DNA from: a virus
Lineage: Duplodnaviria > Heunggongvirae > Uroviricota > Caudoviricetes
Length of the DNA: 8,284 nt
Virus record (IMG/VR): IMGVR_UViG_2737471827_000007
Location: 1 to 8,284 of that record
Strand: one strand, 5' to 3'
Positions 1 to 8,284 of this stretch are shown piece after piece (the first letter of the stretch is position 1; each line of letters starts with the position of its first letter). A program made the position numbers and the translations under genes. The notes under the pieces are model-generated. The model made no database searches, had not been told where the DNA came from, and saw nothing but the letters and a program-made list of their open reading frames with translations.

Positions 1-642
1 TTAATCGGACGCTTTTAAATTTTTATTTTTCCCAGCAGAAAAATTAGCTTTCCCGCTGTTTTGCAACTCAACAAGAGGAGATAACCGTCGGTAAACAGCC
101 AAAAGTATCTTTAACTGAACCAGTTCATCTGCCCCCGATAGTTGAACCAAGTTTTTACGTTGTTCTTCACTAAGTGCCATCACAGATTCAAGTGATTTAA
201 CTGCGTCAGAAACAAGTTCAATCTCTTTAATTTGATTCTGTATACGCAGCTTCTCTGATTTCAACTTTGCCCATTCTCTTTGTCGATATGTACGCATCAC
301 CTGATCGTAAACTTTGTTGGCAGCCAGAATACTTCCACCAACAGCAGTAACTAACTCAGCAATCTGCCAAGAGATATCAATAAGAGCAGACAATTCAATA
401 AAGCCAGGAGAGGCATACTGAATTTTTTTCACTACAGGACGTAAATCTGGTGGAGTCGCACTGTAAGCCCCTCTAAAAAAGTTCACCACACTGTGCCCCC
501 CCTCCCAAGGCATTGTTGAATATCCTCTTGATCCTCCTTTTAGGCCATAAAAAAAACCATATAGCTGCAAATACTCTTTCGTTAAGACCGCGAAATCAGC
601 TAACTCCCAACGATTATCAAGCTCAATTATAACTTTTTCCAT
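1..642 (-). CDS. hypothetical protein (213 aa), AT-rich cargo gene downstream of ogr; hydrophobic central segment and coiled-coil-like C-terminal half
   Basis: Complete minus-strand ORF: ATG at 642-640, stop TAA at 3-1. Weak SD-like GGTGGAAA just upstream. The first 60 nt are about one-third GC by my count, clearly lower than the GC-rich P/Q/A genes. Protein has a hydrophobic stretch (SPGFIELSALIDISWQIAELVTAVGGSILAA) followed by a charged heptad-like region (KLKSEKLRIQNQIKEIELVSDAVKSLESV). I do not recognise the family. Confidence 0.7.
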   Translation of the reverse strand: MEKVIIELDNRWELADFAVLTKEYLQLYGFFYGLKGGSRGYSTMPWEGGHSVVNFFRGAYSATPPDLRPVVKKIQYASPGFIELSALIDISWQIAELVTAVGGSILAANKVYDQVMRTYRQREWAKLKSEKLRIQNQIKEIELVSDAVKSLESVMALSEEQRKNLVQLSGADELVQLKILLAVYRRLSPLVELQNSGKANFSAGKNKNLKASD

Positions 643-736
643 TTTCCACCAACCTGTCCAACTTTAAAGATTGACTTTTAAGTATATGATAAACATAGTT
701 TATTAAACGTGATCCACTACTTTTAATGAAGAATAT

Positions 737-775
737 TCCCCAAAACAGAAAGCCCCTCGACTGAGGGGCTTTCTG
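737..775 (-). terminator. intrinsic terminator downstream of ogr (also hairpin-forming on + strand)
   Basis: Perfect 13-bp inverted repeat CAGAAAGCCCCTC (745-757) / GAGGGGCTTTCTG (763-775) with 4-nt loop GACT. On the minus strand the stem is followed by TTTTGGGG (complement of 737-744), directly after the ogr stop at 783. Confidence 0.6.
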
Positions 776-782
776 TTTGTAA

Positions 783-1001
783 TTACATCCACATAATTTG
801 CTGCCCTGACGGCAACGGGTGCGGCCTTACGGCGTGGACTTCTCCCGGCTTCACAATGTATCGCTGTACCGACTCATAAGTGATGAACGTGGCGCTGCAA
901 TTCACGTTCTGACACTGGTGATAACGCTCTTTTGTCGTGTCAGTGATATAGCGACTTGTACGCGCATGTGCGGCATGCTGGCATAAAGGACAATGAAACA
1001 T
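783..1001 (-). CDS. ogr: Ogr/Delta-family zinc-finger late-gene transcriptional activator (72 aa)
   Basis: Translation MFHCPLCQHAAHARTSRYITDTTKERYHQCQNVNCSATFITYESVQRYIVKPGEVHAVRPHPLPSGQQIMWM has the C-X2-C-X22-C-X4-C spacing characteristic of P2 Ogr / P4 Delta. It matches P2 Ogr as far as I can recall, and the 72-aa length matches. Start ATG at 1001-999 has SD AGAGG about 8 nt upstream. The six-frame track opens further upstream at a TTG (1064), which I consider non-coding. Confidence 0.9.
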   Translation of the reverse strand: MFHCPLCQHAAHARTSRYITDTTKERYHQCQNVNCSATFITYESVQRYIVKPGEVHAVRPHPLPSGQQIMWM

Positions 1002-1146
1002 CGCGAGCACCTCTTCCGGTTTTGTTGATGGTGCCATTTTAGTTAATTTATCCTTATAAAACAAATAGATAAAATAAAAACATCACTCATCATCTTCTGT
1101 TTCGTACTCCACATCAGAAAGCCTGACCTCAAGCTCCAGGGACGTC
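1002..1146. promoter_or_regulatory. AT-rich divergent intergenic region expected to carry the ogr promoter and an Ogr-dependent late promoter for P-Q
   Basis: About 145 bp of AT-rich sequence between divergent ogr and P. It contains a partial dyad TGT-N10-ACA (1098-1113), whereas the P2 late-promoter element as I remember it is TGT-N12-ACA, so the match is inexact. Transcription start sites cannot be determined from sequence alone. Confidence 0.3.
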
Positions 1147-1206
1147 GTGAAGCCGCTATTATTCAGAAAATGTGTCACCTTAGTGATTGTCCAGTCCTGC
1201 TCGTCT

Positions 1207-2961
1207 ATGACGCGCTTACACGACCCGCGTCGTCAGGCGGCGCTGCTGTACTGGCAGGGGTTTTCCGTGCCGCAGATTGCCGCCATGTTGCAGATGAAAC
1301 GCCCGACGGTGCAGAGCTGGAAACAGCGCGACGGCTGGGACAGCGTTGCCCCCATCAGCCGTGTCGAAATGAGTCTGGAAGCGCGGCTGACCCAGCTCAT
1401 CATCAAACCGCAGAAAACCGGCGGTGACTTCAAGGAAATTGACCTGCTGGGACGCCAGATTGAACGACTGGCACGGGTAAACCGTTACAGTCAGACCGGC
1501 AACGAGGCAGACCTTAATCCGAACGTCGCTAACCGCAACAAAGGCGGACGGCGCAAACCGAAAAAGAATTTTTTCAGTGACGAGGCCATCGAAAAGCTGG
1601 AGCAGATTTTCTTTGAGCAGTCTTTCGATTATCAGTTGCACTGGTATCGCGCCGGGCTTGAGCACCGCATCCGCGATATCCTGAAATCCCGCCAGATTGG
1701 CGCAACGTTTTATTTTTCCCGCGAGGCGCTGCTGCGCGCCCTGAAAACCGGTCATAACCAGATTTTTCTGTCGGCCAGTAAAACGCAGGCGTATGTGTTC
1801 CGCGAATACATCATCGCCTTTGCCCGGCTGGTTGACGTTGACCTGACCGGTGACCCGATTGTCCTGGGCAATAACGGCGCAAAACTGATTTTTCTCGGCA
1901 CCAACTCCAACACCGCGCAGAGTCATAACGGCGACCTGTATGTCGACGAGATTTTCTGGATCCCGAATTTTCAGGTACTGCGTAAGGTGGCATCAGGTAT
2001 GGCCTCACAGAGTCACCTGCGCTCGACCTATTTCTCCACCCCGTCCACGCTGGCGCACGACGCCTACCCGTTCTGGTCGGGTGAACTGTTTAACCGGGGA
2101 CGCGCCAGCGCCGCTGAACGCGTGGAAATCGACGTCAGTCATAACGCCCTTGCCGGAGGTCTTCTCTGTGCGGACGGCCAGTGGCGGCAGATTGTCACCA
2201 TTGAGGACGCCCTGAAAGGTGGCTGCACATTGTTCGACATTGAGCAGCTTAAACGCGAAAACAGCGCCGACGATTTTAAAAACCTGTTCATGTGTGAATT
2301 TGTTGATGACAAGGCATCGGTATTCCCGTTCGAGGAGCTGCAACGCTGCATGGTCGACACGCTGGAAGAATGGGAAGACTATGCGCCGTTTGCCGCAAAT
2401 CCGTTCGGCTCCCGACCGGTATGGATTGGTTACGACCCGTCACACCGTGGCGACAGCGCCGGATGCGTGGTACTGGCACCGCCGGTGGTGGCCGGTGGCA
2501 AATTCAGAATACTTGAGCGTCACCAGTGGAAAGGTATGGACTTTGCCACCCAGGCGGAATCCATCCGCAAACTCACCGAAAAATACAACGTCGAATACAT
2601 CGGTATTGATGCCACCGGCCTCGGTGTCGGCGTGTTCCAGCTTGTGCGCTCGTTCTATCCCGCCGCGCGCGACATCCGCTACACGCCGGAAATGAAAACC
2701 GCAATGGTGCTCAAGGCAAAAGACGTTATCCGCCGTGGCTGTCTGGAATATGACGTCAGCGCCACCGACATCACCAGCTCGTTCATGGCTATCCGCAAGA
2801 CCATGACCAGCAGCGGACGCAGCGCCACCTATGAGGCCAGCCGCAGCGAGGAAGCCAGCCACGCCGACCTCGCCTGGGCGACCATGCACGCCCTGTTAAA
2901 TGAGCCACTCACCGCCGGTATCAGCACTCCGCTGACATCCACCATTCTGGAGTTTTACTGA
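1207..2961 (+). CDS. P: terminase large (ATPase) subunit, P2 gpP-like
   Basis: Long ORF of 584 aa from ATG 1207, or 604 aa from the alternative in-frame GTG at 1147, which has AGGGA 4 nt upstream. N-terminal region PRRQAALLYWQGFSVPQIAAMLQMKRPTVQSWKQRDGWD and overall length fit P2 gpP (about 590 aa from memory). Stop TGA 2959-2961 overlaps the Q start by 1 nt, as in P2. Confidence 0.9.
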   Translation: MTRLHDPRRQAALLYWQGFSVPQIAAMLQMKRPTVQSWKQRDGWDSVAPISRVEMSLEARLTQLIIKPQKTGGDFKEIDLLGRQIERLARVNRYSQTGNEADLNPNVANRNKGGRRKPKKNFFSDEAIEKLEQIFFEQSFDYQLHWYRAGLEHRIRDILKSRQIGATFYFSREALLRALKTGHNQIFLSASKTQAYVFREYIIAFARLVDVDLTGDPIVLGNNGAKLIFLGTNSNTAQSHNGDLYVDEIFWIPNFQVLRKVASGMASQSHLRSTYFSTPSTLAHDAYPFWSGELFNRGRASAAERVEIDVSHNALAGGLLCADGQWRQIVTIEDALKGGCTLFDIEQLKRENSADDFKNLFMCEFVDDKASVFPFEELQRCMVDTLEEWEDYAPFAANPFGSRPVWIGYDPSHRGDSAGCVVLAPPVVAGGKFRILERHQWKGMDFATQAESIRKLTEKYNVEYIGIDATGLGVGVFQLVRSFYPAARDIRYTPEMKTAMVLKAKDVIRRGCLEYDVSATDITSSFMAIRKTMTSSGRSATYEASRSEEASHADLAWATMHALLNEPLTAGISTPLTSTILEFY

Positions 2962-3995
2962 TGAGCAAGAAAAAAGGGAAAACACCGCAACCTGCGGCAA
3001 AAACAATGACCGCCAGCGCCCCGAAAATGGAGGCATTCACCTTTGGTGAGCCGGTGCCGGTACTCGACCGCCGTGACATTCTGGATTACGTCGAATGCAT
3101 CAGTAACGGCAGATGGTATGAGCCACCAGTCAGCTTTACCGGTCTGGCAAAAAGCCTGCGTGCTGCCGTGCATCACAGCTCCCCGATTTACGTCAAACGT
3201 AATATTCTGGCTTCAACGTTTATCCCGCACCCGTGGCTTTCCCAGCAGGATTTCAGCCGTTTTGTGCTGGATTTTCTGGTGTTCGGTAATGCGTTTCTGG
3301 AAAAGCGTTACAGCACCACCGGTAAGGTCATCAGACTGGAAACCTCACCGGCAAAATATACCCGCCGTGGCGTGGAGGAGGATGTTTACTGGTGGGTGCC
3401 GTCCTTCAACGAGCCGACAGCCTTCACGCCCGGCTCCGTGTTTCACCTGCTGGAGCCGGATATTAATCAGGAGCTGTACGGCCTGCCGGAATATCTCAGC
3501 GCCCTTAACTCTGCCTGGCTGAATGAGTCGGCCACGCTGTTCCGCCGCAAGTATTACGAAAACGGCGCACATGCCGGATACATCATGTACGTCACCGATG
3601 CCGTGCAGGACCGCAACGATATCGAAATGCTTCGCGAAAACATGGTTAAGTCGAAAGGCCGCAACAACTTTAAAAACCTGTTTCTCTATGCCCCGCAGGG
3701 GAAAGCTGACGGCATTAAAATTATCCCGCTCAGTGAAGTGGCAACGAAGGACGATTTTTTTAATATCAAAAAAGCCAGTGCCGCAGACCTGCTGGATGCG
3801 CACCGCATCCCCTTTCAGTTGATGGGCGGCAAGCCGGAGAACGTCGGGTCGTTGGGTGATATTGAGAAAGTGGCAAAGGTCTTTGTCCGCAATGAGCTTA
3901 TCCCGTTACAGGACAGGATCCGCGAGATAAACGGCTGGCTCGGTCAGGAGGTCATCCGCTTTAAAAACTACTCACTGGACACTGACAACGGCTAA
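2961..3995 (+). CDS. Q: portal (capsid portal vertex) protein, P2 gpQ-like (344 aa)
   Basis: 344-aa ORF, the same length as P2 gpQ. ATG at 2961 overlaps the P stop (TGATG). It is immediately upstream of a terminator and the cos site, matching P2 Q-cos synteny. Confidence 0.9.
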   Translation: MSKKKGKTPQPAAKTMTASAPKMEAFTFGEPVPVLDRRDILDYVECISNGRWYEPPVSFTGLAKSLRAAVHHSSPIYVKRNILASTFIPHPWLSQQDFSRFVLDFLVFGNAFLEKRYSTTGKVIRLETSPAKYTRRGVEEDVYWWVPSFNEPTAFTPGSVFHLLEPDINQELYGLPEYLSALNSAWLNESATLFRRKYYENGAHAGYIMYVTDAVQDRNDIEMLRENMVKSKGRNNFKNLFLYAPQGKADGIKIIPLSEVATKDDFFNIKKASAADLLDAHRIPFQLMGGKPENVGSLGDIEKVAKVFVRNELIPLQDRIREINGWLGQEVIRFKNYSLDTDNG

Positions 3996-4000
3996 ACATC

Positions 4001-4022
4001 GCCGCCTGCGGGCGGCTTTTTT
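4001..4022 (+). terminator. rho-independent terminator of the P-Q operon
   Basis: GCCGCC (4001-4006), loop TGCG, GGCGGC (4011-4016), followed by TTTTTT (4017-4022), 6 nt after the Q stop codon. Confidence 0.75.
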
Positions 4023-4164
4023 ACACCCCGTCATCACGCCCTCACACACTCACCACCGCACAAAACAGCCCGCAGACACACCAACGCCCCGGTGCACAAT
4101 CTAAACGCCATCAAGACGCGCTCAGACGCTGAAAAAATAAAATCAGCACCACCGCCAGCGCGCA

Positions 4165-4183
4165 GTGCTTTCCCCGCCTCGCC
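4165..4183 (-). other. P2/P4-type cos cohesive-end sequence (19 nt)
   Basis: Plus strand reads GTGCTTTCCCCGCCTCGCC; its reverse complement GGCGAGGCGGGGAAAGCAC is the 19-nt P2 cohesive end as I remember it. It lies about 170 bp beyond the Q stop, consistent with the P2 left-end arrangement (cos-Q-P). Confidence 0.75.
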
Positions 4184-4468
4184 CGCCCGCTTCACGGGGC
4201 GGTTTTAATGCAGTTGCATAGATACTATGGATCCGCACCAGTCCTGACCGCACGCAGCCTGAACGGACATCCCCAACGCATGCAAAAACATTCACTTGTT
4301 GCATGCATAGCTTTTTAAGTACGCCATACCGCAACTGTACATTTTTAAGCAATTGGCAACTTTAAAAAATTTACATTGCTTTCAAGACCTTATCATCCGT
4401 AGTCTCTGTTTTTTACTTTGAGCTACATCAATAAAATCTCAAACATGTTTAATGCAAAGCCCTTGTTA

Positions 4469-4521
4469 CACAACATAGAATGTATGTCTAGAAACAACGA
4501 CATACTATATGTTGTGTTTTT
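4469..4521 (+). terminator. candidate intrinsic terminator or structured RNA element (interrupted 16-bp hairpin plus T5)
   Basis: CACAACATA (4469-4477) pairs with TATGTTGTG (4508-4516) and GTATGTC (4482-4488) pairs with GACATAC (4499-4505), with a 10-nt apical loop, followed immediately by TTTTT (4517-4521). The stem is AU-rich, so this could equally be a 5' leader structure. Confidence 0.35.
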
Positions 4522-4583
4522 CCGGCTCTCTGTTCGGTGATATGCCAAATCACTTTGCGTTTAAACAGAGCATTATTTCAGGG

Positions 4584-4598
4584 CAAGACTTCGCTCAA
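4584..4598 (+). repeat. 15-bp exact direct repeat, copy 1 (CAAGACTTCGCTCAA)
   Basis: Identical 15-mer recurs at 4848-4862. The two copies bracket the small peptide gene and its terminator. Confidence 0.7.
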
Positions 4599-4661
4599 AA
4601 GTCATTCCACCTAAGAAGCGCATATACCGGTGGAAGTTGCCCTCTACTTACAGGAGGCAAT

Positions 4662-4775
4662 ATGAAGAAATGCTATTACTGCATTCTCGTTCTGGCCCTC
4701 TTTGGCTATCCAAACGGTAGTCCGAGTGGTTTGTCAGTAAACGTCAGTAATATCAATGTCAGCATTATGCTTTAA
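4662..4775 (+). CDS. small hydrophobic peptide (37 aa): MKKCYYCILVLALFGYPNGSPSGLSVNVSNINVSIML
   Basis: Consensus SD AGGAGG (4652-4657) 4 nt before ATG 4662; stop TAA 4773-4775; intrinsic terminator follows 12 nt later. N-terminus is KK plus a 12-13 residue hydrophobic stretch, then a Ser/Asn-rich tail. The six-frame track shows a longer in-frame 88-aa ORF from 4509, but that ATG sits inside a hairpin and has no RBS. Confidence 0.45.
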   Translation: MKKCYYCILVLALFGYPNGSPSGLSVNVSNINVSIML

Positions 4776-4787
4776 TATGCTTCAAAC

Positions 4788-4817
4788 AAAAAAACCACCT
4801 GCCAGGGTGGTTTTTTT
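4788..4817. terminator. bidirectional intrinsic terminator (A7-CCACC-loop-GGTGG-T7)
   Basis: AAAAAAACCACC (4788-4799) and GGTGGTTTTTTT (4806-4817) are perfectly complementary, with loop TGCCAG. The T-run on the plus strand and A-run (T-run on minus) let it terminate both the peptide transcript and the convergent A operon. Confidence 0.6.
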
Positions 4818-4847
4818 GCGCCCATCATCAATACGATGAAAGACTGA

Positions 4848-4862
4848 CAAGACTTCGCTCAA
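4848..4862 (+). repeat. 15-bp exact direct repeat, copy 2 (CAAGACTTCGCTCAA)
   Basis: Identical to 4584-4598. It is embedded in a short reiteration of AAGAC(T/G) at 4841-4846, 4849-4854 and 4861-4866. Confidence 0.7.
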
Positions 4863-4958
4863 GACGAATTATGCGTCGACATAAGGTTACCCGCAATGAT
4901 TTTATTAGACTAAATGGATGGCCTTTTATGACCCGGATCAAACGGCTGTCCTTACCGA

Positions 4959-5009
4959 CATGCTAGTCACTCAATAGCATTTAGCCTTCTAATTCAGCAT
5001 GCTATTGAC
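4959..5009. repeat. operator-like repeat cluster: CATGCTA direct copies with an inverted TAGCAT between them
   Basis: CATGCTAGTCAC (4959-4970) and CATGCTATTGAC (4998-5009) match at 10 of 12 positions, 39 bp apart. The inverted hexamer TAGCAT sits at 4975-4980. The cluster lies in non-coding DNA just 3' of A. Confidence 0.35.
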
Positions 5010-5077
5010 CTTCTGCTGCCCCATAACTGCTCCGCATAAGCCATTCAATGCCATATCAAATCACGTTGTGTTTTTAC

Positions 5078-7354
5078 TCAAATGGGTAACGAGAACCCCG
5101 GCCACTCATCAGCAACCGGATACGTGAATTTTTTCCCGTCATAATTTACGGTCGCGCCACGCGCCAGCGCCTCAAGCTCCCATCGTTGCGGCCTGATACC
5201 GTTCTGAGCGAGGTCAACGCGGATACGGGTAATTTGCAATCGTTCAGACCTGGTCAGTCTGGCAGATGGTGCAATTTCATGCGGTTTTAACGGGATTCCG
5301 TTTCTTTGCTGACGATTTGGTGTTCTCAGTCCGTGTTTTAATGCGCCCCTGAGCGCCATCACGACCTCCGGGTCACTCCATTCGATAACACCGTCATCTA
5401 CCAGATTAAGCACTGCTGCGGCGTGCTCAGAAGGTGTGGGAGCCGGTAACGAAGTATCACCACCGGTGAGCTTTCCACAGTTATTGACAGGACTCCGAGG
5501 CGCGGCGATGCCGCTTTTTAAAGTCAAAGGCTCAACGACCGGCACTTTCGGAACAATGCGCCAGTCCGTCGTTCTGGTGATATGAATATGACGCGCGCCG
5601 AGATGCGGCGCGTAAATGCCGACCACTCTCTCGACTTCTTCCTCGTACTCGTTAACGTCATCCGACGGACTACGGGCGACCCTGACAGTCTGACAATCGC
5701 GCGGGACATTTGCCCCACCCTGCGCGCTGATATACAACGCAAAATCACCACTGTCTGCGGCAGCGCGAGCAGCCTCGACGCGTTCGTCAAACTCATCAGC
5801 AATACTGACGCCGCGAGGCAATTTGCGTAGTTCACGGTAAGCCCCCATTGTCGGCAGTCCAACCGTTTTAAATTGCGGGATGCGCCACGTTGACGCCCAT
5901 GCGGTAACAGCCGCGGCAGTATCTTTAAGCGGCTTACCGGTATCGTTATCGAGCTGACCATCCAGTGCATAGCCGTCGATATTTTTTGAAATGTATTTCG
6001 CGATATATCCCGCAGCACCGCCCCGGTTAAGGTGCTTTGCCTGAAAACGGTTTCGCGCGGCTCCTCTTTCGTCACCATCCTCTTTGAGCGCATAGCGACG
6101 CATGATTTCGATAATCTGGTTACGCTGGCGTGGATTACAAAAAAGCATCATATGCCAGTGCGGCGTTCCGTCGTGGTGTGGCTCGACGACACGCAAACCG
6201 TAGACCTGTAAATCATTATCCTTGAATGCCGTGCGCATCAGGCTCCAGATGCGGCAGAGATAACGCTGCGCATCCTTTGGATTAAATGCCTCATCGTTCC
6301 AGCCGTGATTAAGCTGAACGGTTTTACTTTCGCCTTTTCTGACCTGACGAGTCGGGTGATACTTTGACGGCGCGGTCAGCGTGATAAACATCCCCACATC
6401 ACCCTCTGCGGCGGCGTAACGCTCAATACCGGCAATGGTGTTCATCAGCTCCATCCGGCGAATTTCAGGATTAGAAATACTGCCCATCACCTTACTGATA
6501 AGGTCGATGCGCTCGCCGGTTTCCCTGTTTTCAAGGTCACACGATTTAAGAAATTCCAGATTTGCCTGGCGGCGCGCACGCACATCACGAATGGCGTGTT
6601 TACTGGCATAAGGAGAACGGTCTTTATTGACCTCCCCGACAGCTATCAGTAACGCTTCATGCCAGCGCATACGCTGGCCTTTAAGCTGATGAGTCCACCA
6701 CTCATCGTTAAACAGACGGGCAATGGCAGAATATGCCTGCCTCGTGGTCATCTGCCCTTTACGGTATTTTTTCCAGTAGAGCGGGGAAATATTGAAAGCA
6801 CGTGCAGCGCCAGCAACATGACCATAGAGGTGAGCCTGCGCCTCATCCGTAAACAGCGATTCTTTTTCGCCATGCGCATCCACCCAGGCATCGCTGAGTT
6901 CCTCATACATCATGAAAAGCTGCGATGAGATACGGGCAGCAAACTTTTTCAGCTCCTTGTCATTCATTCCCGGCAGGCGCGCATAGTGGTCACGCTCTGC
7001 CAGAAACAGTAACGACGCGTCGGTGTTCATTTCATGGCGCTGATTCACACGCTCAATGCGCGGCCATAAACGACGCTGAAAAGTGGATGTGAGGAAATAA
7101 AACCCGTGCACCGGGCTTTTATTGCGCCGGATGTAGTCATAGCGTGAAGTAAACAGCGAGCGCAAAAAGTAAGGCAGGCGGTTAATCGTGGATAAAACAC
7201 CTTGCACCTGACGCATCTCGTCACGTGTAAGGGGTCTTTCGCGCCCGACGGCCTCGCGTGGCGCGTTCCATGCATAAGCACCGGTAAACGCCTTACCGGT
7301 GCCTGCAGCAAATGCTGACGGAGGGACAAAACGCCCGGAGGCTTTAACGGCCAT
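5078..7354 (-). CDS. A: rolling-circle replication initiation endonuclease, P2 gpA-like (HUH/Y-X3-Y)
   Basis: 758 aa from ATG 7354 (the ORF opens at TTG 7396, giving 772 aa); P2 gpA is about 761 aa from memory. Contains HUH-type motif PHWHMM and paired catalytic tyrosines in YIAKYISKNIDGY. Confidence 0.9.
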   Translation of the reverse strand: MAVKASGRFVPPSAFAAGTGKAFTGAYAWNAPREAVGRERPLTRDEMRQVQGVLSTINRLPYFLRSLFTSRYDYIRRNKSPVHGFYFLTSTFQRRLWPRIERVNQRHEMNTDASLLFLAERDHYARLPGMNDKELKKFAARISSQLFMMYEELSDAWVDAHGEKESLFTDEAQAHLYGHVAGAARAFNISPLYWKKYRKGQMTTRQAYSAIARLFNDEWWTHQLKGQRMRWHEALLIAVGEVNKDRSPYASKHAIRDVRARRQANLEFLKSCDLENRETGERIDLISKVMGSISNPEIRRMELMNTIAGIERYAAAEGDVGMFITLTAPSKYHPTRQVRKGESKTVQLNHGWNDEAFNPKDAQRYLCRIWSLMRTAFKDNDLQVYGLRVVEPHHDGTPHWHMMLFCNPRQRNQIIEIMRRYALKEDGDERGAARNRFQAKHLNRGGAAGYIAKYISKNIDGYALDGQLDNDTGKPLKDTAAAVTAWASTWRIPQFKTVGLPTMGAYRELRKLPRGVSIADEFDERVEAARAAADSGDFALYISAQGGANVPRDCQTVRVARSPSDDVNEYEEEVERVVGIYAPHLGARHIHITRTTDWRIVPKVPVVEPLTLKSGIAAPRSPVNNCGKLTGGDTSLPAPTPSEHAAAVLNLVDDGVIEWSDPEVVMALRGALKHGLRTPNRQQRNGIPLKPHEIAPSARLTRSERLQITRIRVDLAQNGIRPQRWELEALARGATVNYDGKKFTYPVADEWPGFSLPI
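5484..5503 (-). other. candidate replication origin / gpA nick site inside the A coding sequence
   Basis: Minus strand reads GCGCCTCGGAGTCCTGTCAA. This matches what I recall as the P2 ori sequence cleaved by gpA, and P2 ori is known to lie within the 3' part of gene A. The match is to memory only. Confidence 0.3.
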
Positions 7355-7619
7355 ATGAGCCAAAAGCCTCTGAACAACGCCTGCTGAGTTGCTCAACCTG
7401 CGCGTTTAAATCAGCAAAAGACTTTGCGCTTCCGGTCAGAATATCGTGATGCATCAGGCTGGAAACGAGCTGGCTTAATTTCGGATAATAACCAACCACC
7501 GCCAGCCATTCCTGACCGGCGTTTTTACCGCTTTCCGCTCTCTTTTTCTCGTGGAGAATAAACTGAAAGCTGTCACTGGTAACGACATAACGTTCGCCAA
7601 TTTCAATACGAATACTCAT
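7344..7619 (-). CDS. hypothetical small protein (91 aa) upstream of and overlapping A; early-operon small ORF
   Basis: ATG at 7619 with SD GGAG 6 nt upstream; stop overlaps the A start (7354) by 11 nt, suggesting coupled expression. Translation MSIRIEIGERYVVTSDSFQFILHEKK... has no motif I recognise and no Cys cluster, so it is not an Ogr- or DksA-like finger. Confidence 0.6.
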   Translation of the reverse strand: MSIRIEIGERYVVTSDSFQFILHEKKRAESGKNAGQEWLAVVGYYPKLSQLVSSLMHHDILTGSAKSFADLNAQVEQLSRRCSEAFGSYGR

Positions 7620-7699
7620 GCCGTTCTCCGGTAATGTTTGTTTTTTGCTTCAAAGACTGACTGGCAGGAAACACAACGCGTGGCTGACGGATATCCGGC

Positions 7700-8284
7700 A
7701 TGTTCACAAAATTAATTCAATTGGATGAATTTTCCGGGCAACACCCAATTCACGGACTGCCGCCACTGGCGGAGGCCAACCCTGAAATGACGTTCCTGGA
7801 AAAAGCAGAAATCGAAAAACTGTTAAATGTTTTGGCTGGTGATGACTTACTTGTCGCGCTTTTATGTCTGAGCACTGGAGGAAGATGGACGGAAGTTGCC
7901 ACGCTAAAACCAGCACAGATTACAAATTGCAGGGTTACCTTCCTGAAAACCAAAAACGGTAAAAAGCGAACCGTGCCGATTTCTGAGGAACTGGAGAAAA
8001 AAGTTAAAGAGGAGGCCAGCGCCAAATTATTCAAAGTTGATTATGAGAAATTTTGCGGGATTTTACGCAGAGTGAAACCTGATATACCACCCAATCAGGC
8101 AACCCACATCCTGCGGCATACATTCGCAAGCCATTTCATGATGAATGGGGGCAATATAATCGCACTGCAACAGATTCTGGGACATGCGAGCATTCAGCAG
8201 ACGATGGCCTATGCGCACCTTGCGCCTGACTATCTGCAAAATGCCGTCGCTCTGAATCCACTAAAAGGCGGAGTGACGTTATAA
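7700..8284 (+). CDS. tyrosine recombinase (phage integrase family), catalytic domain only, 194 aa
   Basis: Box I TGGRWTE, box II HILRHTFASHF, and LGHASIQQTMAYAHL with the catalytic Tyr. An in-frame TGA at 7685-7687 limits any N-terminal extension to 4 codons, so the protein lacks the usual arm- and core-binding N-terminal domains of full integrases (330-400 aa). There is no obvious SD. Confidence 0.8.
   Translation: MFTKLIQLDEFSGQHPIHGLPPLAEANPEMTFLEKAEIEKLLNVLAGDDLLVALLCLSTGGRWTEVATLKPAQITNCRVTFLKTKNGKKRTVPISEELEKKVKEEASAKLFKVDYEKFCGILRRVKPDIPPNQATHILRHTFASHFMMNGGNIIALQQILGHASIQQTMAYAHLAPDYLQNAVALNPLKGGVTL

Follow-up and report, generated by a model that had tools for sequence, protein, structure and literature searches.

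Does this 8,284-nucleotide stretch of viral DNA (the window) carry an organised, reduced replicon, or is it what is left of an ordinary prophage? The initial annotation had leaned towards the first view, with a satellite of a P2-like helper or a deletion derivative as possible identities. Sequence homology, the deletion breakpoints, the regulatory regions that are gone, the restriction to one clone and the secondary lesions observed at this locus lead us, with high confidence, to the second view. The window covers the inner part of a defective P2-like (Peduovirus) prophage remnant, an element of a known kind, cut by two deletions.

Gene content of the window

The gene set comprises ogr, P (large terminase), Q (portal), an exact P2 cos, A with its ori, orf83 and a short recombinase. 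Domain searches and exact matches to cos and ori bear out the content first proposed. No capsid, tail, lysis, C or cox gene lies within the window or adjoins it (ORF list and domain search, identical locus). Over the whole element, the ORFs, Pfam matches and identical loci show that O, N, M, L, tail, lysis, C, cox and B genes are all missing. The features are as follows.

1-642, minus strand: 213-aa low-GC cargo ORF, between the ogr terminator and attR (ORF call; PADLOC PD-T4-10_B match)
749-772, minus strand: rho-independent terminator of the ogr / F operon (homology to P2 24265-24288)
783-1001, minus strand: ogr, zinc-finger late-gene activator, intact, 72 aa (Pfam Ogr_Delta, E=1.1e-21)
1035-1064, minus strand: putative sigma-70 promoter of ogr itself (mapped from the annotated P2 -35/-10, 23973-24002)
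1083-1218, minus strand: 3' stub of the tail gene D, pseudogene, last ~44 codons, 136 nt (PGAP and junction alignment)
1207-2961, plus strand: chimeric large terminase gene P, 584 aa (Terminase_5/6N/6C domains; comparison with P2 gpP)
1216-1218, no strand: junction of deletion 1, TTA 3-bp microhomology (alignment to sister prophage L002)
2961-3995, plus strand: portal gene Q, intact, 344 aa (ORF and domain search; 97% nucleotide identity to P2)
4001-4024, plus strand: tQ, terminator of the P-Q operon, with hairpin GCCGCCTGCGGGCGGC and then a T run (maps to P2 160-181)
4165-4183, minus strand: cos, exact P2 19-nt cohesive end (cosL- and cosR-side homology on both flanks)
4213-5090, plus strand: non-P2 cargo in the cos-proximal hotspot (no P2 backbone; P2 has old/tin here)
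5078-7354, minus strand: replication initiator gene A, intact, 758 aa (Pfam Phage_GPA, E=1.3e-122)
7344-7619, minus strand: orf83 homologue (DUF5405), 91 aa (maps to P2 27769-28044)
7616-7693, minus strand: 3' stub of orf82, a traR/dksA-like zinc-finger gene, pseudogene, 78 nt (PGAP and junction alignment)
7692-7693, no strand: junction of deletion 2, 2-bp microhomology (alignment to L002)
7694-8284, plus strand: truncated integrase, ORF from ATG 7700, 194 aa (Pfam Phage_integrase; comparison with full-length Int)

Compared with the P2 reference (NC_001895), identity is 97-98% over ogr/D', P-Q-cosL, cosR and orf82'-orf83-A. Region 749-1218 aligns with P2 24288-23819 at 98%, and region 4165-4212 with P2 33593-33546 at the cos flank. 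In identical loci ogr is annotated as OgrK (WP_000468308.1). Its promoter was placed by mapping of P2 coordinates and was not picked up by a generic sigma-70 scan. The cos site, the terminator and the coupled P-Q overlap had been described as intact, and they are: the 19-nt cohesive end of P2 has one exact match (0.01 expected by chance), the tQ hairpin itself occupies 4001-4016 and the P and Q ORFs share one nucleotide at 2961. The P2 ori nick-site 30-mer is found exactly at about 5481-5510, inside A, with the nick at about 5496. An Rfam scan of the entire window returned no family at gathering score. A reading of the locus as a tRNA-targeting island was dropped because the tRNA/tmRNA scan of the window was empty.

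The gene order had been taken as a sign of reorganisation. This premise survives in part. The ogr-P and orf83-int adjacencies are indeed abnormal, but the A-cos-Q-P order is canonical in circular or prophage P2 (PMC9122126). Moreover, ogr does not strictly abut P, since the 136-nt D stub lies between them and the start of P is chimeric. Likewise, the 91-aa ORF between A and the recombinase is confirmed as orf83, but it shares that interval with the 78-nt orf82 stub.

Two deletions in a P2-like prophage

The reading as a deletion derivative could be made precise with a full-length sister prophage located at the same att site in E. coli strain 1613 (L002), which has the canonical P2 gene order. 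The window aligns with it in three colinear blocks, with breakpoints at 1216-1218 (3-bp microhomology) and 7692-7693 (2-bp). Deletion 1 spans 18,841 bp (L002 coordinates 1160-20000). Lost with it are the genes from D (most of it) to O, the first nine codons of P, the P_P and P_O promoters and the Ogr-binding site. Deletion 2 spans 2,547 bp (L002 26479-29025). Along with the 5' part of orf82, it took out orf81, orf80, B, orf78, cox, Pe/Pc and C, and int lost its codons 1-123. On the P2 map, the deleted intervals include P_P, the Ogr-binding site, Pe, Pc, C, cox, B and M; the small terminase M was thus lost as well.

Both breakpoints fall inside genes and leave stubs of D and orf82, so that the boundaries are non-modular. 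In identical loci, PGAP annotates what is left of D, traR and int as partial pseudogenes, labelled respectively as an incomplete phage late control D family protein, an incomplete TraR/DksA family protein and an incomplete integrase, all missing the N-terminus. An IS-mediated or site-specific (Hin/Cin-type invertase) origin of the deletions was rejected because neither junction bears an IS scar or a repeat; the microhomology there is 2-3 bp. The alignments with the sister prophage show that the element arose by two illegitimate-recombination deletions in an ordinary P2-like prophage.

The most probable course is the following. A P2-like phage (Peduovirus) integrated between fieF and cpxP of E. 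coli by means of its own tyrosine integrase. The deletions then cost it 18.8 kb that began close to the 3' end of D and reached codon 9 of P, and 2.55 kb between the interior of orf82 and about codon 123 of int. The leftover would be passive, with P-Q and A promoterless, P also without a ribosome-binding site, and Int reduced to a fragment of its catalytic domain. cos, ori and the att repeats survived simply because they lay outside the deletions. The remnant has been passed on vertically in one clone, where it is still eroding.

State of P, Q, A and the integrase

The native N-terminus of P, MTITTDTTL (first 9 codons), is swapped for MTR, which is encoded by DNA antisense to D; by chance, P thus has a new in-frame ATG and a reading frame again. 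Beyond residue 3, the gpP of the window is 99-100% identical to that of P2. The start of P has neither a Shine-Dalgarno sequence nor a promoter. The native P-Q promoter (P_P with its Ogr-binding site) and the native A promoter (Pe) were all removed by the deletions. The generic sigma-70 scan of the window gave 6 sites (8.1 expected), none of them positioned for P-Q or A. A search for the Ogr-type motif TGT-N12-ACA gave a single match, at 4485-4502 (1.9 expected by chance), and none upstream of P. The A protein itself is identical to that of an intact phage (Logan contig L010). Transcription of A by read-through from cpxP was rejected because the att core, which holds a strong terminator hairpin and U-tract on the cpxP-reading strand, insulates the element. 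From this arrangement of signals, P, Q and A are predicted to be silent in the remnant. ogr and the cargo genes may well still be expressed, since these regions have signals of their own (a promoter and a terminator for ogr).

The short recombinase is a real ORF. It is, however, a fragment, residues 133-326 of a 326-aa Int, with residues 1-132 gone. The Phage_integrase match covers profile positions 2-169 of 172, and the catalytic R...HxxR...H...Y signature is kept (R62, H136, R139, H162 and Y171, conserved with P2 Int). What it lacks is its promoter and the N-terminal part for arm and core binding; Int_N is found only in full-length homologues (L010). With Int truncated, cox absent, Pe/Pc deleted and A promoterless, the element does not encode regulated excision and replication of its own.

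Integration site, distribution and further erosion

The flanks had been singled out as the place where structural and lysogeny genes might still be found. In a 100%-identical locus (L007) and in three complete E. coli genomes, the neighbours of the element are fieF and cpxP, which are host genes; intact att direct repeats of 47 bp lie on either side of it in an identical locus. Full-length prophages occupy the same fieF-cpxP att site, for example in strain 1613.

Of 5,426 complete E. coli genomes, only 3 have both junctions, though about 2,000 genomes carry component sequences; dozens of draft assemblies with identical chromosomal flanks have them too. Carriers number about 60-70 assemblies, GCA_037039635.1 being one with the version of the window. 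On these grounds, the element is confined to one E. coli clone (pig-associated), at a single locus. All carriers share 100%-identical 5.8-kb flanks; the corresponding identity of the strain with the intact prophage is 98.8%. Horizontal spread would place the same architecture in other backgrounds, sites or hosts, and the flanks are identical in all carriers. Exact-junction scans gave no match in IMG/VR viral contigs and none in 100,044 species-representative genomes.

Among copies that are at least 99.95% identical, four independent secondary lesions were found within the clone. Two are different deletions in A (5226-6023 and 6047-7285), one is a frameshifting deletion in P (1221-1806) and one is an insertion of ISVsa5 at about 4453-4463, near cos and inside the cargo region. 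In addition, E. coli strain H2 (NZ_CP028733, L018) carries an independent ogr-O'-P fusion with other breakpoints and a frameshifted Q.

These observations run against an organised reduced replicon as opposed to random decay. The breakpoints lie in ORFs, the promoters and the N-terminus of Int are lost, the element belongs to one clone in which A and P are eroding and an IS sits next to cos, and the H2 fusion has other breakpoints. On the other side of the balance, the version present in the window has an intact Q, A, ori and cos, two intact att repeats and a P that is intact beyond residue 3, and from its sequence some residual activity or mobilisation of this version by a helper is conceivable.

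Cargo ORFs and possible domestication

The 213-aa ORF is not P2 backbone and, by profile search, resembles the PD-T4-10_B toxin family (PADLOC, E=1.3e-34, with only profile positions 139-346 of 353 covered). Its homologues, of 209-235 aa, are stand-alone genes. Sister prophage L002 has another ORF in this position. PD-T4-10 is a toxin-antitoxin defence system in which the PD-T4-10A antitoxin gene lies upstream of PD-T4-10B and overlaps it (PMC9519451). The PD-T4-10_A partner is absent here, with just 140 bp of ORF-free DNA from the 213-aa ORF to the ogr stop codon. The cos-proximal cargo, in a slot known as a defence hotspot (PMC9122126), contains a 37-aa ORF (4662-4775) with an AGGAGG ribosome-binding site, as well as a terminator at 4787-4818 and a repeat at 4848-4862 that is a candidate source of an antisense RNA. 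Neither ORF had a match in Pfam and PHROG searches.

These ORFs raise the possibility that selection acts on ogr, the 213-aa ORF and the small cos-proximal ORF while the phage backbone hitch-hikes. Such domestication is compatible with the remnant explanation and bears only on why the remnant persists. The 213-aa ORF, ogr and the 37-aa ORF are unaffected in every variant examined, while A and P are hit, and the 37-aa ORF is conserved in 86-88%-identical phages with mostly synonymous changes. The match to a defence-toxin family and the location in a defence hotspot point in the same direction. Against it, the toxin-like ORF lacks its partner, the IS insertion falls inside the cargo region, and the variants are too few and their divergence too low to tell selection from chance; the carrier copies are also too alike for a dN/dS test. 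We consider this idea tentatively, as having a minor chance of being right.

Could the element be mobilised by a helper?

A helper-dependent mini-element would supply its own cos, TerL, portal, A/ori, Ogr and recombinase, and would take capsid, tail and small terminase from a P2-like phage. The exact cos, the intact A, ori and att repeats of the window, and an intact ogr with its own promoter region are what such an element would need, and helpers of the same Int/Cox specificity occur in nature (L002, L010). However, the genes it would rely on have lost the P-Q and A promoters and the Ogr-binding site near P, its Int is without the N-terminal 132 residues and cox is missing. Its boundaries are breakpoints inside genes with 2-3 bp of microhomology, A and P are undergoing deletion inside the clone, and it is known from one clonal background and one locus, being absent from viral contigs and from other species. 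In P2, moreover, A works preferentially in cis; and since P2 terminase takes up circles of about genome length, an 8.6-kb circle should, as a monomer, fit neither a P2-sized nor a P4-sized head. The satellite-like reading is thus unsupported, given the non-modular breakpoints, the loss of promoters and of part of Int, the clonality, the erosion within the clone and the independent H2 fusion. We regard it as very improbable.

An accidental form of mobilisation may also be envisaged for the window version. A sister phage of the same Int/Cox specificity, whether co-resident or superinfecting, would excise the circle of 8.6 kb, and part of the copies would enter particles as multimers, about four copies amounting to one P2 genome length. 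If true, the remnant would be mobilisable, an accidental hitchhiker resembling a proto-satellite and caught at birth. Here too the likelihood appears very small.

Finally, chimeric assembly of the ogr-P and orf83-int joins has a negligible probability: no evidence supports it, and the same junctions, which are thus genuine, recur in dozens of independent drafts and in three closed genomes that were assembled independently and come from different countries.

For the defective prophage remnant, the value of the case lies mainly in annotation, as a well-resolved example of P2-like prophage erosion. Structural and lethal genes go in two microhomology deletions, after which the clone acquires more deletions and an IS insertion. 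It also calls for caution: a short stretch in which cos, ori and terminase look intact is not a satellite on that account, and adjacency of A, cos, Q and P is normal for P2. Interesting accessory genes may persist in such remnants; those of this one are an orphan PD-T4-10B-like ORF and a small conserved ORF of the cos hotspot. Prophage remnants can also donate sequence to incoming P2-like phages through recombination.

Comparison with known systems

Capsid-forming PICIs are also small elements with portal and terminase genes. They have a complete and coherent head and packaging module and their own regulation, and they are widespread. In contrast, the element described here has no capsid, scaffold or small terminase ORF, and its genes are promoterless leftovers.

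P4-like satellites share with it a P2-type cos, an activator of the Ogr/Delta family and an integrase-mediated chromosomal site. Their core set consists of psu, sid, delta, alpA, epsilon, alpha and int (PMC8628076). Of this set, the present element has just an Ogr/Delta homologue and a truncated int, and it lacks psu, sid, alpA, epsilon and the alpha primase; the rest of the DNA is P2 backbone or belongs to the two small cargo slots. Its clonality and its P2 P, Q and A genes at 97% identity to the helper also set it apart from P4.

The strain H2 derivative uses the same att site, and a morphogenetic deletion of about 18.8 kb also joins ogr to P with P-Q-cos-A kept. It differs in that codon ~5 of ogr is fused to codon ~28 of O and that P_P, the early region, C, cox and full int are kept. 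Q is frameshifted and the defence cargo is another one.

Full-length Peduovirus prophages at fieF-cpxP are represented by strain 1613 (L002), Logan contig L010 and Escherichia phage 899. The att site and the cos-proximal cargo are the same, the C-terminus of Int is 100% identical over residues 133-326, P/Q are 98-99% identical and A is identical to that of L010. In contrast to the window, they retain the late genes of the 18.8-kb interval and the immunity and early genes of the 2.55-kb one.

A literature search for a described remnant of the same architecture, or for any remnant at fieF-cpxP, returned nothing specific. The ogrK-yegZ remnant of K-12 and the cryptic P2-related prophage of E. coli B are other defective P2-like remnants. 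The ogrK locus of K-12 is mentioned in PMC3708739. With such remnants of E. coli, the present element shares a P2 backbone at 97-98%, an att site of the P2 family, internal deletions leaving partial genes, and an intact ogr kept with its own promoter. It differs from them in that it also keeps P, Q, cos and A/ori, has its own breakpoints and belongs to one pig-associated clone.

Gene content and P2 backbone

The element is a passive, defective P2-like prophage remnant. Listing the window's ORFs in all six frames and scanning them with Pfam bears out the genes named in the initial annotation. Scans of the whole window detected no tRNA genes and no Rfam families.

Backbone features of the window (genes from the ORF list and Pfam)
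783-1001, minus strand, ogr
1207-2961, plus strand, large-terminase gene (P)
2961-3995, plus strand, portal gene Q, 1-nt overlap with the terminase gene
4001-4016, tQ terminator
4165-4183, cos, exact 19-nt P2 cohesive end
5078-7354, minus strand, replication initiator A
about 5481-5510, P2 ori nick site, surrounding 30-mer exact
7344-7619, minus strand, DUF5405 ORF, 91 aa
7700-8284, plus strand, Phage_integrase ORF, 194 aa

The P2 reference and the window share 97-98% identity across three blocks. The first contains the last 136 nt of D and ogr with its terminator and promoter region. The second contains P from nucleotide 28, Q, tQ and cos, and the third the last 78 nt of orf82, orf83 and A. 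Outside this backbone are positions 1-748, 4213-5090 and the integrase, whose similarity to P2 int is limited to a short stretch of only ~70% identity. The A-cos-Q-P order, first counted as abnormal, is the usual P2 order across the cohesive ends (PMC9122126).

Chromosomal location

Among 5,426 complete E. coli genomes searched by megablast, three pig-associated strains have near-identical copies; in these, fieF and cpxP, both host genes, lie on either side of the element. A 47-bp direct repeat holding the cpxP terminator hairpin marks its ends. In locus L001, the copies of this att core, which fall just outside the window, are located at 19872-19918 and 27597-27643. Because the att core with the cpxP rho-independent terminator is duplicated at both ends, the host terminator is restored on integration. 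Beside both att ends of L001, repeated TGTCCACATAG(C/T)GTCCACA motifs resemble Int arm-type binding sites.

All 8,284 bases of the window are matched at 100% identity by a draft locus, L007, whose host neighbours are also fieF and cpxP. No structural genes are found just outside the window; fieF and cpxP flank it instead, and the element is thus truly reduced. Its presence in three complete genomes and in the L007 draft excludes artefactual junctions.

Origin by two deletions

A full-length P2-like prophage occupies the same att site in E. coli strain 1613, with the canonical gene order ogr-D-U-T-...-O / P-Q-cos-A-orf83-orf82-orf81-orf80-B-orf78-cox-C-int. The window aligns with it in three colinear blocks, and the junction alignments show two deletions. 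The element is therefore a deletion derivative, as the initial annotation had allowed.

The first deletion, of 18,841 bp, runs from a point 136 nt ahead of the D stop codon to P codon 9, with only TTA in common at the joint (window 1216-1218). According to positions in the P2 annotation, it took all capsid, small-terminase, lysis and tail genes, as well as the P_P/P_O promoters, their Ogr-binding site and the P ribosome-binding site. P now starts at a chance ATG within D-antisense DNA, MTR replacing MTITTDTTL, and no Shine-Dalgarno sequence precedes this start.

The second deletion, of 2,547 bp, begins within orf82 and extends to int codon ~123; its joint has a 2-bp microhomology (window 7692-7693). 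orf81, orf80, B, orf78, cox, Pe, Pc and C were lost. What had been called a short recombinase is an integrase fragment (residues 133-326 of 326) that keeps the catalytic residues but lacks the arm-binding and core-binding N-terminus. The D, traR-like and int pieces are partial pseudogenes in the PGAP annotation of identical loci.

One further genome, E. coli strain H2 (NZ_CP028733), emerged from a search for any ogr-P adjacency; it has a defective prophage at the same fieF-cpxP site (locus L018, 11999-23791). There, an independent deletion of ~18.8 kb fused ogr codon ~5 to O codon ~28. The early/immunity region and int of this prophage are intact, and its Q gene is frameshifted. Since all late genes sit between P and ogr in the prophage form, any large late-gene deletion yields ogr-P adjacency. 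The cos hotspot of this prophage bears a pair formed by a HIRAN-domain protein and a 3'-5' exonuclease.

Clonality and further lesions

The component sequences occur in normal prophages of about 2,000 of the complete E. coli genomes, and both junctions together in only 3 of the 5,426. Some dozens of draft assemblies encode the chimeric P protein, and its context is the same in every case. The exact junction gave no hit in IMG/VR viral contigs or in 100,044 species-representative genomes. Chromosomal flanks (5.8 kb each side) are 100% identical, with at most one SNP, among all carriers examined; the intact-prophage strain differs from them at 70 of 5,857 flank sites. The identical flanks therefore point to one clone and one locus, with vertical inheritance. 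Inside this near-identical clone, four independent further lesions are observed.

Further lesions (window coordinates)
5226-6023, 798-bp deletion in A with loss of ori, three complete genomes
6047-7285, a different deletion in A, 1,239 bp, variant L005
1221-1806, 586-bp frameshifting deletion in P, variant L006 and four similar assemblies
about 4453-4463, ISVsa5 insertion beside cos, locus L003

The genes being lost are exactly those that a satellite would require. The clonal distribution, these lesions, the absence of the exact junction from viral contigs and species-representative genomes, and the independent deletion in strain H2 argue against the organised or satellite-like element initially proposed.

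The ISVsa5 copy (IS10 family) occupies 7463-8791 of L003 (strain CUPS TF 6/1_01) in the cos-proximal cargo, just upstream of a hairpin and small-ORF locus. The IS is therefore active in this clone. In L006, 15545-15548 corresponds to window 1216-1220 joined to 1807. The left end of this deletion is within 4 bp of the first-deletion junction, a proximity with a chance of roughly 1-2%. That junction created a 6-bp inverted repeat, GACGCG/CGCGTC, which might have promoted slippage.

Cargo slots

The slot between attR and the ogr terminator is filled by ORF 1-642 (minus strand), a low-GC cargo gene of 213 aa with no match in Pfam or PHROG. In PADLOC, this ORF matches PD-T4-10_B (E=1.3e-34); the match covers ~60% of the longest model, at its C-terminal end. 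PD-T4-10_B acts as toxin in an abortive-infection TA system of two genes (PMC9519451). Its antitoxin partner PD-T4-10_A cannot fit, because the ORF is separated from ogr by just 140 bp and from att by ~80 bp. In Vibrio, Pseudomonas and Enterobacter, homologues of 209-235 aa stand alone; one adjoins another Ogr_Delta gene (locus L015). In the sister prophage another ORF takes this place, a difference suggesting a third variable 'moron' site of these phages.

In the cos-proximal hotspot, 4213-5090, most records annotate no gene.

Features of the cos-proximal hotspot
4468-4517, stable hairpin, -21 kcal/mol, z=-4.6
4584-4598 and 4848-4862, exact 15-nt direct repeat CAAGACTTCGCTCAA, one copy before and one after the 37-aa ORF
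4662-4775, plus strand, conserved 37-aa hydrophobic ORF, MKKCYYCILVLALFGY..., strong AGGAGG RBS
4787-4818, perfect terminator after the 37-aa ORF

The 5' leader of the 37-aa ORF, ~130 nt, is highly conserved, and changes in the ORF are mostly synonymous in two phages at 86-88% identity. The layout of this locus (4468-4862) is reminiscent of type I toxin-antitoxin loci.

Proposed state of the remnant

The native promoters of P-Q and A were deleted, and the window shows no evident substitute for either. A would also be insulated from host read-through by the cpxP terminator in the att core. Without M the terminase would be inoperative, with nothing to package into, and excision would lack both Cox and a working Int. 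Both deletions missed cos, ori and att, which is why these are still present. ogr could still be made, as its own promoter region and terminator are kept; in K-12 and B, the cryptic ogr genes are functional. Both cargo slots likewise carry expression signals of their own. From the sequence, we infer that P, Q and A are silent and that ogr and the cargo are expressed.

The version in the window keeps A, ori, cos and att intact, and a sister phage with matching Int and Cox could conceivably excise the element. We consider this very improbable because A is promoterless, the size is unsuitable for packaging, the distribution is strictly clonal and P2 A shows cis-preference.

Comparison with known elements

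The passive remnant differs from P4-like satellites, which are defined by core genes that it lacks (PMC8628076), and from capsid-forming PICIs in their defining features. Identical sequences already carry a defective-remnant annotation in RefSeq, and P2-like remnants of this kind have long been known.
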